Assembly (NCBI RefSeq): GCF_013315695.1
Contig: NZ_CP054353.1
Length of the DNA: 64,000 nucleotides
From: Escherichia coli
Lineage (GTDB): Bacteria > Pseudomonadota > Gammaproteobacteria > Enterobacterales > Enterobacteriaceae
Reading direction: 5' to 3' (one strand)
Part shown: one piece after another, positions 50,709-56,874 of the stretch
Position numbering within the stretch: the first letter of the stretch is position 1
Layout of the letters: each line of letters begins with the position of its first letter
Notes under the pieces: model-generated
The model's input: only the letters and a program-made list of their open reading frames with translations
The model's database searches: none
What the model was told of the DNA's origin: nothing
Made by a program: the position numbers and the translations under genes

Positions 50709-50769
50709 ATCATCACCCGCAAAAAAATGAGGCGCTATGTTAGCGCCTATGGTCAGCGGATTAAAGTAC

Positions 50770-51963
50770 TCAGCGTGGTTGCAAACAGTTATCTTCTTTC
50801 CAGCCGTACAGCCACTCCATGCCGCGGTAAAACTCTGCCTGCGATTTCCCTTTCCACAGCAGGTTACGTACCTGGCGCTCTACTCCTGCGGCATGATAAA
50901 CCCGCCCCATTTCACGGGTCGACCAGATGATGCGCGCGGTGCGCGGTATACGTACCGACTCATACAGCGCAAAGGCTTGTGCCGCATCACCCTCACACTG
51001 CGCCAGCGCCTTACCCAGTGTTACCGCGTCTTCCAGCGCCATACAGGCACCCTGCGCCATATACTGCGCCACCGAATGGGCCGCATCGCCCACCAGCGTA
51101 ATGCGCTTCGTTCCCCACTTCGCTACCGGTTCACGGTCGGCGGTTGACCAGCGTCGCCAGGAGGTCGGTTTATCCAGCATCTGGCGCGGACGGGGGTGAA
51201 TCCCTTCAAAGTAAGAGAGCACTTCCTCTTTACTGCCATCTTTCACGCCCCACTCTTCCTGCTGGCGGCTGTGGAATGTCACCACCAGGTTATACTGCTT
51301 GCCGCCGCGTAAAGGGTAATGCACCAAGTGACAGCACGGCCCCGCCCACAGTACTGGTGCGTTAATGCGCAAATCTTCCGGCATATCGGCACAATCGATA
51401 ACCGCACGGTAGACCACATGCCCGGTGACACGCGGCGCATCGCCCAATAAGCTCTGGCGCACCACTGACTTCACGCCGTCACAGCCAATCAGAATATCGC
51501 CGATCCAACTATTGCCGCGATCGTCGAAAACGGTGACATCGTCTTCTGTCTCGCGAATATCCACGACGTTGGTGGAGGTGTGATATTCCACGTCCGGATG
51601 CGTCAGTACCGCTTCCCACACCGAGGCATGAATATCAACCCGGTGGATCACCGCGTAAGGGCCGCCGAAATGATCGCGAAAGGCCTGACCGGTTTCAATG
51701 CGCACCACTTCTTCGGCGTTTACCGCATCCATCATGGTGATGTGATCGGTGAATACCGCGCGCTGGCGGGCGATTTCGCCGACGCCGAGGCTATCCAACG
51801 CCGAAAACGCATTTGGCCCCAACTGGATACCTGCGCCAATCTCACCGATCTCATGCGCCTTTTCCAGCAGCACCACTTTGATCCCCTGGCGGGCCAGTGA
51901 CAACGCAGTTGCCGCACCGCCGATCCCGCCTCCCACAATTACTGCGCGTGTCACTTTAGTCAT
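50770..51963 (-). CDS. FAD-dependent aromatic hydroxylase, 3-hydroxybenzoate 6-hydroxylase-like
   Basis: 397 aa; N-terminal GGGIGG FAD-binding motif; last gene of the gentisate operon. Confidence 0.8.
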
Positions 51964-51977
51964 TATGGTTCTCCTGG

Positions 51978-52622
51978 TCAGGCTGAAATTTTATCTTGTT
52001 GATTTTCTGGCGCTGCGGCAATGAACGCTGGCAGCTGCGTGCAGGCGTCGTACACCGCTTTGCAGCGCGGATACCCGCTCAGATCGCAGTTCATACGTAG
52101 CGCGTTCGCCCACTGTGGAACAAGGCAGCAATCTGCCAGCGTCGGCGTCTCGCCCACACAAAATTGCCCCGACTGGCTCTGGCGCAGTAGCTGTTCCACC
52201 GCGCTTAACCCTTGCTGGATCCAGTGCGCATACCAGCGTTTTTTATCTTCTTCACTGACGTTCAGCTCTTCGGTCAGGTAGCGCAGCACGCGTAGGTTAT
52301 TCAATGGATGAATATCGCAGGCGATGGCATAGACAATTTCCAGCACCTTGTTGCGGGCCGGTTCTTCCTGCGGCATCAGCGGAACTTGCGGGTAGTGACT
52401 CTCCAGCCAGTCAATAATCGCCAGCGATTGTCCGAGTGATTCGCCCTCGTCGGTCAGCAGCGTCGGCACCAGCCCGACCGGATTCATCCGCCGGTAGGCC
52501 AGTTCGTTTTGCTGACCAATGCGGATATTCACCCCTTCGGTCTGGTAATCGATACCCTTCAGCGCCAGCGCAATGCGCACCCGGTAAGACGCTGAACTAT
52601 TAAAAAAACTGTACAGCTTCAT
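51978..52622 (-). CDS. maleylpyruvate isomerase (GST zeta-like)
   Basis: N-terminus MKLYSFFNSSASYRVRIALALKG typical of maleylacetoacetate/maleylpyruvate isomerases; track ORF starts at an upstream TTG. Confidence 0.8.
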   Translation of the reverse strand: MKLYSFFNSSASYRVRIALALKGIDYQTEGVNIRIGQQNELAYRRMNPVGLVPTLLTDEGESLGQSLAIIDWLESHYPQVPLMPQEEPARNKVLEIVYAIACDIHPLNNLRVLRYLTEELNVSEEDKKRWYAHWIQQGLSAVEQLLRQSQSGQFCVGETPTLADCCLVPQWANALRMNCDLSGYPRCKAVYDACTQLPAFIAAAPENQQDKISA

Positions 52623-52629
52623 CATCACC

Positions 52630-53331
52630 TCAGACAATCTTCACCGCGATAGGCGTTAAGCCCTCGACGTTGCCCGTGATCACATCACCTTTGACTACTG
52701 GGCCAACCCCTTCCGGCGTACCTGTAAAGATTAGATCGCCCGGTTGCAGTTCAAAGAAGCCTGACAGGTAGCTGATGGTTTCATTCACTGACCAGATGAG
52801 ATGACGAATATCGCTGCGCTGATGATCTTCGCCGTTAACCTGTAACCAGATAGGTGCGTTATCAATACCGCCAGTTTCGCTGGCTTTGTGCAGCGGCGCG
52901 ATGGGGGCCGAGAGATCGAACGCTTTGCCGATTTCCCACGGGCGGCCCATCTGGCGCATTTCCATTTGACGGTCACGGCGAGTCATATCAAGACCCGTGG
53001 CATAACCCCAGACATATTCATGGGCGTTTTCCAGCGGGATATCACTGCCTTTTTTACCAATCGCCACCACCAGTTCAATTTCATAATGGTAGTTATCGGT
53101 CTGCGCCGGATACGGCAGCGCCAGCGTTTCGCCAGCGGCAACCGGAACAACGGCATCCGCCGGTTTGCAGAAGAAGAATGGCGGTTCACGATCCGGATCA
53201 AAGCCCATTTCACGGGCGTGGGCGGCATAGTTACGTCCGACGCAGTAAACGCGGCGTACGGGGAATTGTTCATCACTGCCAACAACCGGTACGGTAACGG
53301 GCGCTTGTGGTTCGAATACGTATTGAGTCAT
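52630..53331 (-). CDS. fumarylpyruvate hydrolase (FAH family)
   Basis: 233 aa FAH-fold protein between the dioxygenase and isomerase genes. Confidence 0.8.
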
Positions 53332-54375: not shown

Positions 54376-54386
54376 TGGGATGCTCC

Positions 54387-55745
54387 TTATTCGTTCACAA
54401 CACCTGCGTGAGGCAGTGAGTCAGGGACAGAGGTCGACTGGCGAACCACGGTGATCAGCAGGGTTAACATCACCGCACTGATCGCCGCGGGCACAGCGAT
54501 AATGAAAAACAGAGTGTCGAAAGAGAAATTCATCGCCATCATCACGCCGCCAGACAGCGAGCCAACAATCGCGCCGCAGCGGCCCACGGCGTTTGACCAG
54601 CTCACGCCCGTGGCGCGACTTTGTGTTGGATAAAGTGTTGCGGTCAGCGCATTCAGCCCCACCTGCGATCCGCTGATGCCAATGCCGGTGCCGAAAATCG
54701 CCAGCGCCATTAGCCATAATCCGTCCTGGCTTAAGCCAATCATCACGATGCATACAGCGCCTATGGCATAGCTCAGCGCCAGTACGCGGAAAGGATTGAA
54801 CTTATCCATCAGCACGCCCAGCGCCAGCGCGCCCAACGTACCGCCAATCTGGAACGCGGCGGTAACCCAGGAGGCATGTTGCAGGTCGATGCCGCGATGG
54901 TTGAGCAGCGTTGGCATCCAGCTTGAGAGCAGGTAAATAATCAGCAAGCTCATAAAGAACACCACCCACAGCATCAACGTGATGGGTAACTGACGCCCCA
55001 TAAACAGTTGACGAATGCTGCCTTTTGTAACGGAGGCTGATTCAATGAGATAAAAGTGGGTATCGACATAACGCTCGCGGGTGATGGCGCTGACGGTTTT
55101 CGCAATCACCGCCTGGGGTAGCTGGCGGCGCACCTGCCAGCGTGGCGATTCCGGCAGAACCACCAGCAGTGCAACAAACAGCATCAGCGGTAATACGCCA
55201 CCCAACACCAGGATCCCGTGCCAGCCAATCACCGGCACCAGCTGCGCGCTGACAATCCCACCAAACGCCGAACCCAGGGTAAAGCCGCAAAACATCAGCG
55301 TCACCAGCGCGCCGCGGCGGCGGGCAGGCAGATATTCCGAGGTCATGGTAATTGTGTTTGGCATCGCGCCACCCAGCCCAAGGCCGGTGAGGAAACGGAG
55401 GAATACTAGCGTTTGCAGATCCGGTGAGAAAGCCGAGGCGAGGCTTAACGCGCCAAACAAAAAGACGCACAGCTCAATCACCCGTTTGCGGCCAAAGCGA
55501 TCGGACAACGGACCACAAAGCAGTGCGCCTGCGGTTAACCCCAGCAGACCCGCGCCAAAAAGCGGGGCGAGATCGCCTGCGGTGAGTTGCCAGTGAGTGC
55601 GAATATCAGGGGCGATAAAGCCGATAGCCGCGGTGTCAAAACCATCGAGCATTACCACCAGAAAACAGCAGATGATAACGCGCCACTGCATCTTGCCGAC
55701 CGGAGCAGCATCGATCAGTGCTTGTAAATCACGTCGTTGAGTCAT
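54387..55745 (-). CDS. MFS aromatic-acid/H+ symporter (3-hydroxybenzoate/gentisate transporter-like)
   Basis: 452 aa, 12 predicted TM helices; MFS motif [11 protein letters not shown]. Confidence 0.8.
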
Positions 55746-55871
55746 AGTAAATGCCTCAGTGCAGGTAAGGTAGATGTTTCTTTTGTTTTATGTATGTTGC
55801 GATATTGTGATTAAAGAGATGAAATGTACAATGGCATTTCGGGCAGAGAGATAACCTGGAGGTTATGGCAA

Positions 55872-56780
55872 ATGGCAAACTGGGCGCAGAAACTAAAGCT
55901 TCATCACCTGCAAATGCTGGTGGCGCTGGGTGAACAGGGCAATCTGACCCATGTGGCGCGGATGATGAATATCACCCAGCCTGCGCTGTCGAAATGGTTG
56001 TCACAACTCGAAGATGAGATCGGCCTCACACTCTTTGAGCGGCACAGCAAAGGGTTACGCCCTACCGAAGGCGGTAGATTGTTATTGCAACATGCCCAGC
56101 GGTTAATCAATGACATGGAGCGCTCGCAACATGAACTGGCCCGTTTTAAACAAGGTGGGCTGGTCGGCAGTCTGAAAATTGGCTGTTCTCCCGTCGCCAC
56201 TGACTGCGTATCACAGGCGATTTTGCATTTGCTCAAGGAGATGCCAACTCTACACCTGAATATTGAAGAGAAGGTTATGACCCCATTGCTGCAAGATCTG
56301 TTGGCAGGTTCTGTCGACGTGGTCGTTGGGCGAATTGGCGGTCGCGCCTTGCAGCTGCCACTGAATTATAAGGTGCTCTACACCGAGCCGGTGTGTTTTG
56401 TCGCCCGTGCTGAGCATCCACTGGCGAAATACGCCACCCTCAGCTGGAATGATCTTGCTAACTGGCGGTGGATAGTCTGGCCGACAGGTACCCCCATTCG
56501 CATCAGTATTGATAATGCGCTGGTAGACCACGGCGTGATGCTGCCAGAAAACACGATTGAGTCGGCGTCGATGAACGTCAGTACCAACCTGTTACAAAGC
56601 AGCGATATGATCTCTATTTTGTCATTACGCCTGGCGCAACGTTATGCCAGCCAGGGACAACTGGTGATCCTCAACCTGCCAAAGATAGAACAGAAAGGCA
56701 GCGTCGGTGTGTTCTGGCGCAATAACGAAACGCCTTCTTATGCTTTAAGTCAGTTTCTGCACTTTTTACAGCAGAATTAG
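55872..56780 (+). CDS. LysR-type transcriptional regulator of the gentisate operon
   Basis: N-terminal HTH LHHLQMLVALGEQGNLTHVARMMNITQPALSKWLSQLE; divergent from the operon. Confidence 0.8.
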   Translation: MANWAQKLKLHHLQMLVALGEQGNLTHVARMMNITQPALSKWLSQLEDEIGLTLFERHSKGLRPTEGGRLLLQHAQRLINDMERSQHELARFKQGGLVGSLKIGCSPVATDCVSQAILHLLKEMPTLHLNIEEKVMTPLLQDLLAGSVDVVVGRIGGRALQLPLNYKVLYTEPVCFVARAEHPLAKYATLSWNDLANWRWIVWPTGTPIRISIDNALVDHGVMLPENTIESASMNVSTNLLQSSDMISILSLRLAQRYASQGQLVILNLPKIEQKGSVGVFWRNNETPSYALSQFLHFLQQN

Positions 56781-56874
56781 TGTGCTGAACTGGGCGCTCG
56801 CCCGAGGTTACGTCCCTAAAATTCAACTATGCTGAGAATTCTTAATGTGATCGGTAGCACGTTTTACGAATTAA

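Follow-up and report, generated by a model that had tools for sequence, protein, structure and literature searches.

The locus described here raises the question of whether a set of catabolic genes that Escherichia coli K-12 lacks was gained by the strains that carry it or lost by those that do not. It is the interval between dusC and yohJ in a 64,000-nucleotide stretch of E. coli DNA, which we call the window and in whose positions all coordinates are given. The genes in question form the 3-hydroxybenzoate/gentisate cluster mhbR/mhbTDHIM. The original prediction had described them as a strain-variable metabolic islet inserted at this site. We are confident that the interval encodes the enterobacterial pathway by which the plant phenolics 3-hydroxybenzoate and gentisate serve as sources of carbon. 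With the same confidence we take the cluster to be ancestral at the dusC-yohJ site and its loss, in K-12 and in about 90% of the E. coli sequenced, to be derived. K-12 represents the derived state at the locus, and absence of the genes from that strain should not be read as their insertion in others.

The dusC-yohJ interval is filled by six intact genes, mhbM, mhbI, mhbH, mhbD and mhbT on the minus strand and the divergent mhbR on the plus strand (Table 1). According to the open reading frame (ORF) listing for 47.5-60 kb, all six are full length and none has an internal stop, which agrees with the claim of a complete cluster without frameshifts. Their lengths are those of the annotated orthologues, and the five minus-strand genes follow one another head to tail with gaps of 7-15 nucleotides (nt). 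In E. coli AF3, the DNA of the interval is 100% identical to that of the window, and RefSeq annotates the same six products there. The extent first proposed for the cluster, 50709-56874, takes in the entire interval; it begins at the start codon of dusC and ends at the start that the ORF finder assigned to yohJ. The part that differs from K-12 is shorter (50767-56838), and the annotated start of yohJ is at position 56911.

All six products matched NCBIfam or Pfam models far beyond chance, and the hydroxylase, the dioxygenase and the isomerase passed the equivalog cut-offs, so the gene identities given in the original prediction were upheld. MhbM scored 750 bits against NF006021 (3-hydroxybenzoate 6-monooxygenase), for which the cut-off is 459 bits. 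Among solved structures its best match is 4BJY from Rhodococcus jostii RHA1 (E = 3e-77), and it keeps the residues aligned to Tyr105, His213, Tyr217 and Gln301 of that structure. MhbD scored 600 bits against TIGR02272 (cut-off 442). It is ~98% identical, over its full length, to the gentisate dioxygenase of E. coli O157:H7 (2D40), the characterised enzyme to which it had been linked, and the iron-binding residues His104, His106 and His145 are present. MhbI scored 309 bits against the maiA model TIGR01262 (cut-off 171) and matched 6JWK (E = 3e-69) and the maleylpyruvate isomerase 2V6K/2JL4 (E = 3.5e-48). Its gene context suggests that it prefers maleylpyruvate over maleylacetoacetate. MhbH belongs to the FAA_hydrolase family (PF01557, E = 1e-54). 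Its matches among solved structures include 6J5Y (E = 2.5e-113) and 4MAQ, described as a 'putative fumarylpyruvate hydrolase' (E = 1e-73). It missed the YcgM-type NCBIfam model (154 bits vs 201), and NCBIfam holds no specific model for fumarylpyruvate hydrolase. MhbT is clearly a member of the aromatic acid:H+ symporter family; it obtained 380 bits with TIGR00895, slightly under the cut-off of 418.6, and is 87-88% identical to the orthologue of the K. oxytoca group. The name given to it by RefSeq (PGAP) is 3-hydroxybenzoate transporter, and its first helix carries the DGFD motif described in PMC5566891. The nearest NCBIfam model to MhbR is PcaQ (189 bits vs a cut-off of 304), and the protein is 84-85% identical to MhbR of the K. 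oxytoca group. The start of mhbR at 55872 is conserved across genera and is also the one annotated by PGAP. A longer mhbR ORF starting at 55824 was rejected, since the genera do not share the upstream extension, which also runs over the -10 hexamer.

The roles of the pathway enzymes, the regulator and the transporter come from the Klebsiella pneumoniae (now K. oxytoca) M5a1 system (PMC3572157; PMC5566891). By analogy with that system and with the work on the O157:H7 dioxygenase, MhbT would import 3-hydroxybenzoate by proton symport, and MhbM, using flavin adenine dinucleotide (FAD), NADH and O2, would hydroxylate it at C6 to give gentisate. MhbD, an Fe2+ enzyme, would then open the gentisate ring to maleylpyruvate, which MhbI would convert with glutathione to fumarylpyruvate, and MhbH would cleave the latter to fumarate and pyruvate. 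MhbR, a LysR-type activator by the same analogy, probably binds the palindrome ATAACC-N4-GGTTAT. With the substrate present, bound MhbR would turn on the five-gene operon and repress its own gene. For this strain we infer the operator, the promoters, the inducers and the expression of the operon. The pathway, its regulator, its transporter and one E. coli enzyme have already been described, and the operon is correctly named in RefSeq, where the same products are listed; this is not a new system, as the original prediction had recognised.

The M5a1 cluster contains the same six families in the same order, with a divergent LysR regulator (PMC3572157). Its likeness to the window was gauged with the orthologues of K. 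oxytoca NBRC 105695 and K. michiganensis DSM 25444, which occupy the same dusC-yohJ interval and show 84-92% protein identity. The predicted correspondence of gene order with Klebsiella was found in these K. oxytoca-group loci. At the nucleotide level the group is ~80% identical to the window, and the spacer between mhbM and dusC is longer in Klebsiella (about 150-170 nt vs 61 nt in the window). The cluster of E. coli O157:H7 occupies the same site with the same six genes and is 95.4% identical to the window in nucleotide sequence and 98-99% in protein sequence. It is a distinct allele, separated from that of the window by a synonymous divergence (dS) of 0.13-0.25. Between its terminator and its mhbM gene lies a further GC-rich palindromic element, ~98 bp long (L003:3888-3990, F1273), that the window lacks. 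Part of this element travels with the island copy of strain ML35, described below. The Salmonella enterica cluster shows synteny identical to that of the window at ~80% nucleotide identity, with a dioxygenase longer by 3 residues. According to Goetz and Harmuth (1992), as cited in PMC3572157, both m-hydroxybenzoate and gentisate are metabolised by Salmonella.

More distant systems share parts of the pathway. The nagIKL genes of Ralstonia sp. U2 and their Pseudomonas aeruginosa homologues encode the same lower pathway of dioxygenase, glutathione-dependent isomerase and hydrolase as the mhb genes; MhbI matches the isomerases 2V6K/2JL4 and 6JWK, and MhbH the hydrolase 6J5Y. The nag genes are fed by salicylate 5-hydroxylase within a naphthalene operon, with another regulator, another gene order and no known MhbM or MhbT. 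The actinobacterial pathways (the genK cluster of Corynebacterium and the Rhodococcus 3HB6H system) follow the same overall chemistry, and MhbM is homologous to 4BJY, although its identity to this RHA1 hydroxylase is moderate. The actinobacterial isomerase depends on mycothiol and is not a glutathione transferase. GenK belongs to the same transporter family as MhbT (PMC5566891).

In K-12, as predicted, the cluster is missing, and 111 bp of unrelated sequence stands in place of the 6,072-bp segment. The left junction with K-12 lies at 50766/50767, three bases beyond the mhbM stop codon, and the right junction at 56838/56839, 58 bp beyond the mhbR stop. Three empty-site strains of different backgrounds have the 111-bp filler in common. 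It is single-copy and occurs in 4,918 of 5,426 complete E. coli genomes, which makes the empty state practically a single allele. Its single-copy state also led us to reject the idea that it is a repeat element. The terminator that follows mhbM in the window remains in the K-12 empty site, though no co-oriented upstream gene is left there.

A cross-species scan was made with the dioxygenase as query and one genome per species, and the best 80 loci were compared. The cluster was found at the same dusC-yohJ site in about 15 other enterobacterial genera. The arrangement dusC / mhbM-I-H-D-T / mhbR / yohJ-yohK-cdd-sanA is present in E. albertii, in a divergent Escherichia labelled E. coli E69 and in many Citrobacter, and likewise in the K. 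oxytoca group, Raoultella, Kluyvera, Pseudocitrobacter, Pluralibacter, Shimwellia and others. A Salmonella Infantis record reads mdtQ-yohP-dusC-mhbMIHDT/mhbR-yohJK-cdd-sanA. Cluster genes and flanking genes diverge in step at the nucleotide level, with identities falling from ~90% in E. albertii through ~82% in Citrobacter to ~80% in K. oxytoca. Over 22 loci, the mean identity of the six Mhb proteins follows that of five flanking proteins with r = 0.98. To the alleles of E. albertii and E69, those of E. coli show 90-92% identity, a divergence equal to that of the flanks. The shared site in related genera and the divergence matching the flanks lead us to regard the cluster-bearing state as ancestral and the K-12 state as derived. 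In the simplest reading of these comparisons, the K-12 allele would be a single derived loss that is now dominant in E. coli.

The insertion proposed in the original prediction would mean that a horizontally acquired islet entered a formerly empty dusC-yohJ spacer in some E. coli lineages. It would account for the absence of the cluster from K-12 and about 89% of complete genomes, and for a GC content slightly over the window mean (0.554 vs 0.517); another 6-kb stretch of the window reaches 0.561. The cluster can also move, as is seen from its copies in an island rich in insertion sequences (IS) and on IncF plasmids. We nevertheless consider insertion highly improbable, since site, order and orientation are the same in Salmonella, E. 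albertii, Citrobacter and Klebsiella, with a divergence equal to that of the flanks, and independent insertion of the outgroup clusters is implausible given the matched divergences. The E. coli alleles stand as far from E. albertii and E69 as their flanks do and are not copies of a foreign donor. The empty site is no clean spacer, as it holds 111 bp missing from cluster-bearing genomes, and the conserved terminator after mhbM is still in K-12. No integrase, transposase or other mobility gene was found within 50709-56874, and neither att-like repeats, terminal direct or inverted repeats nor a target duplication were found at 50767/56838. None of the marks by which a genomic island is recognised (mobility genes or repeats, discordance of site or divergence, deviant composition) was seen. 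The claim that no mobility genes flank the cluster is correct inside the interval; outside it, an IS110-family element lies 146 bp beyond the dusC stop codon and is unrelated to the cluster.

Several points weigh against our reading of the locus as an ancestral, functional pathway that K-12 has lost. The 111-bp filler showed no homology to the cluster in short-word BLAST against every cluster-bearing locus, so a deletion has left no recognisable scar. The best 80 loci included none from the representatives of E. fergusonii and some further Escherichia species, and if the cluster is truly absent from them, several losses or an old polymorphism would be needed. The cluster dS between the window and O157:H7 alleles exceeds that of yohJ, cdd and sanA (0.02-0.06), which could reflect import from another Escherichia lineage. 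As to function, MhbT, MhbH and MhbR score under the curated cut-offs of their nearest NCBIfam models, so their specific roles rest on context and on the 84-92% identity to the Klebsiella-group orthologues. Finally, a literature search found no paper on E. coli growth on 3-hydroxybenzoate via the native cluster. The filler was also considered as a remnant of the cluster. This was rejected: BLAST gave no match, and the outgroup mhbR-yohJ spacers in a 19-genome alignment resemble the spacer of the window, not the filler.

The raised dS of the cluster would fit a history in which the ancestor of E. coli lost the genes and the present carriers regained them from another Escherichia lineage by homologous recombination through dusC and yohJ. 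The existence of distinct native-site alleles, at 99.6, 99.0, 96.6, 96.2, 95.4 and 94.7% identity to the window, points the same way, and recombination does occur in the mhbR-yohJ spacer. In O157:H7 TR01 (L095:9001-9038), the right end of the K-12 filler has taken the place of 39 nt of this spacer; the hybrid adjoins K-12-like yohK and cdd alleles, which indicates recombination between cluster-bearing and empty haplotypes. However, the dS of dusC and yohK (0.11-0.14) is similar to that of the cluster, and no sampled non-coli Escherichia is closer than 92%, so no donor was identified. We regard loss followed by regain as unlikely. It differs from simple retention only in degree, because the cluster is ancestral to the genus in both cases.

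The strain variability that had been predicted was confirmed by comparing the interval and the cluster across complete E. coli genomes, of which 614 of 5,426 (about 11%) carry the cluster. At least 99% identity to the window allele was found in 70 cluster records, 95-99% in 518 and 90-95% in 31. The O157:H7, O55:H7 and O145 alleles (~95.4-95.6%) fall in the middle band and made up more than half of an evenly spaced sample of rows from a genome collection that is biased towards outbreak lineages. The 111-bp filler is missing from 505 genomes, which implies roughly 500 native-site carriers and about 100 genomes with the cluster elsewhere. Between the window and O157:H7 alleles, the ratio of non-synonymous to synonymous divergence (dN/dS) is 0.03-0.06 for all six genes, and dS is higher in the cluster than in the flanks taken together (0.02-0.14). 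The low dN/dS together with the high dS shows that the mhb genes have long been kept functional in both lineages and that the alleles are old or partly exchanged. By our reading, the cluster persists in a minority of E. coli lineages, where purifying selection has maintained it. It can serve as a clean strain-variable metabolic marker, present in about one in nine complete E. coli genomes and weighted heavily to O157:H7 and its relatives. In addition, a contig labelled as a Collinsella metagenome-assembled genome (L048) carries mhbR, mhbT and mhbM at 98-99% protein identity to E. coli, with a partial match to mhbD and no match to mhbH or mhbI. Most probably the bin is contaminated with E. coli DNA, and the contig holds a deletion variant of the cluster.

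The genes might be intact and yet not serve growth on 3-hydroxybenzoate in E. coli, being silent, acting on gentisate only, or acting on related gut compounds such as substituted salicylates. The silence of the literature on growth is compatible with this, as are the weakness of the predicted mhbT promoter and a weak secondary match of MhbD to 5-aminosalicylate 1,2-dioxygenase (242 bits vs a cut-off of 650). Against it stands the strong purifying selection on all six genes, the hydroxylase and the transporter included. Gentisate dioxygenase activity of the O157:H7 enzyme is on record (Adams et al. 2006, cited in PMC4585797), and the GtdA protein was detected in O157 in the rumen (PMC9135228). 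Moreover, Klebsiella pathway DNA lets K-12 grow on 3-hydroxybenzoate, to judge from the title of Robson et al. (1996) cited in PMC3572157. We therefore find a role other than growth on 3-hydroxybenzoate quite improbable and retain the carbon-source pathway as the function of the cluster.

Copies of the cluster also occur away from the dusC-yohJ site. E. coli ML35 and its relatives have a copy with 97.5% identity to the O157 allele (L086:4948-11063). It is placed in an island that also contains CbtA-type toxin genes and several remnants of IS, and in ML35 its mhbM is frameshifted. At the same island site, NCTC9100 has only a 186-bp mhbM remnant (L084:4001-4186). The right edge of the ML35 copy (56832) is close to the K-12 junction (56838), and this was considered as the sign of a mobile unit. 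We judged it a likely coincidence, because the spacer is only 130 bp long and the island copy derives from an O157-like allele including part of its extra left-hand element. An allele at 93.5-93.8% identity was found in 12 E. coli plasmid records and one Escherichia sp. plasmid record of PLSDB, and at 26 plasmid places in the RefSeq set. In the inspected plasmid copies, IS1414 and IS1 bracket the cluster on IncF virulence plasmids, e.g., pOkiPb01690_1. The large IncF plasmids with a complete cluster (L085:11995-18020 and L091:5995-12020) also hold ehxA, sta1, astA and F4-like fimbrial genes, and the carrying isolates came from cattle, swine, birds and produce. Two further records labelled as plasmids look chromosomal. 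One is a 499-kb Salmonella record (NZ_CP148876.1, L090) with mdtQ, dusC, cdd and sanA, and the other a 4.9-Mb E. coli record (NZ_CP134663.1, H136).

Table 1B of PMC9135228 counts GtdA among the proteins that O157 up-regulates in vivo in the rumen of cattle kept on a maintenance diet. Since the cluster occurs on virulence plasmids and is expressed in the rumen, it is a reasonable candidate for a niche factor. Such a role, suggested by the plasmid and island copies and by the rumen data, is plausible but unproven. Tentatively, the locus may be an old presence/absence polymorphism kept in E. coli by selection and not drifting away, with the use of plant-derived 3-hydroxybenzoate and gentisate being advantageous in ruminant and plant-associated niches; we see this as a possibility, on balance a doubtful one. 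It would explain why purifying selection on the genes has stayed strong in O157:H7, O55:H7, O145 and several further lineages, and why the dioxygenase is up-regulated in the rumen. It would also explain the independent IS capture of the whole cluster into a chromosomal island and its capture onto conjugative IncF virulence plasmids of cattle, swine and produce isolates, on which genes for enterohaemolysin, heat-stable toxin and fimbriae are also present.

The divergent control region between mhbT and mhbR was analysed in an alignment of 21 sequences from about 15 genera. Its palindrome is near-invariant across genera and is a candidate MhbR operator. It also spans the Shine-Dalgarno sequence of mhbR and falls within the predicted mhbR leader, and its centre lies ~64 bp upstream of the predicted mhbT transcription start. 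This is the usual place for the recognition site of a LysR-type regulator. The promoter-like site of mhbR has a TACAAT hexamer that is conserved across genera. A weak candidate promoter for mhbTDHIM, under the scan threshold, overlaps it back to back. Transcription is predicted to start near 55839 for mhbR and near 55795 for mhbT. The ribosome-binding sites of the region are conserved across genera. At the other end of the operon, the terminator-like hairpin after mhbM (fold of -20.4 kcal/mol, z = -3.0) was the top terminator match and is conserved in every genus examined, and the scan found no convincing terminator inside mhbTDHIM. The hairpin ends ~11 nt ahead of the dusC start codon in every genus, so there is no room for a promoter between the two (50709-50772). 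For K-12, a dusC promoter with the sequence TCAACA-18-CATCAT was predicted by genomic systematic evolution of ligands by exponential enrichment (SELEX; PMC3946193). By our reading of the sequence, this site adjoins the yohJ start (56880-56909), which in the window is 6 kb off, beyond the cluster. No Rfam RNA family was found at E <= 0.1 in the window between 46000 and 58000.

Table 1. Features of the dusC-yohJ interval and its borders, with their positions in the window.
Feature	Coordinates	Strand	Basis
Segment differing from K-12, 6,072 bp	50767..56838		Junction alignments vs K-12 and two other empty-site strains
mhbM, FAD-dependent 3-hydroxybenzoate 6-hydroxylase, 397 aa	50770..51963	-	NF006021 equivalog
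mhbI (maiA), zeta-class glutathione-dependent maleylpyruvate isomerase, 214 aa	51978..52622	-	TIGR01262
mhbH, fumarylpyruvate hydrolase, FAH family, 233 aa	52630..53331	-	Pfam FAA_hydrolase
mhbD (gtdA), bicupin Fe(II) gentisate 1,2-dioxygenase, 342 aa	53347..54375	-	TIGR02272
mhbT, MFS transporter, aromatic acid:H+ symporter family, 452 aa	54387..55745	-	Pfam MFS_1
mhbR, LysR-type regulator, divergent from mhbT, 302 aa	55872..56780	+	Pfam HTH_1 and LysR_substrate
Divergent control region mhbT/mhbR, 126 bp	55746..55871		Conserved blocks in alignment
Perfect palindrome ATAACC-N4-GGTTAT, candidate MhbR operator	55851..55866		Near-invariance across genera; operator role inferred
Promoter-like site for mhbR, TTGTGA-16-TACAAT	55805..55832	+	Promoter scan; TACAAT conserved across genera
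Weak candidate mhbTDHIM promoter, TTGTAC-18-CAATAT	55802..55831	-	Sequence and conserved blocks; under scan threshold; inferred only
Intrinsic-terminator-like hairpin AGGCGCUAACAUAGCGCCU followed by U7 run, after mhbM stop	50720..50748	-	Top terminator match
dusC, left flanking core gene	49761..50708	-	NF007838, 696 bits; 97.9% nt identity to K-12
yohJ, right flanking core gene	56911..57309	+	NF002494, 219 bits; annotated start

The IS110-family element on the far side of dusC occupies 48231-49614, with its transposase gene at 48504-49529 on the minus strand. It sits at the equivalent point of a ~275-bp repeat that is native downstream of both aqpZ and dusC. To its left lie aqpZ and ybjD, which in other E. 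coli are found elsewhere, near lysO and hcp. This arrangement fits a large inversion between the two ~275-bp repeat sites, which on the K-12 map would presumably be some 1.3 Mb long and include the terminus. The predicted reciprocal junction, mdtQ-yohP-IS110-lysO, was searched for with a synthetic query, which was covered to 100% in all 15 listed complete genomes and to at least 80% in 92. The element was considered as a vehicle of the cluster and rejected, since the usual mdtQ-yohP-dusC flank is seen in carriers of the 99.6, 99.0 and 96.2% alleles, and O157:H7, though it carries the cluster, lacks the IS. Because these close alleles have a normal left flank, the rearrangement is unrelated to the cluster.

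Outside the interval, AF3 is 100% identical to the window over 47800-49900 as well as over 50709-56874. It has an IS1 between ybjD and aqpZ that is missing from the window, where ybjD lies 777 bp nearer to aqpZ (window 45210-47288 vs L001:1-2586); the window thus belongs to a close relative of AF3 and is no part of the AF3 assembly. The IS110 transposase shows no more than remote similarity (E about 1e-7) to IS621 and ISCro4, whose structures are solved. Downstream of the transposase gene, the element has a long non-coding end (48231-48503), which might encode a guide RNA. This end folds well, with -85 kcal/mol (z = -3.0), and gave no Rfam match.

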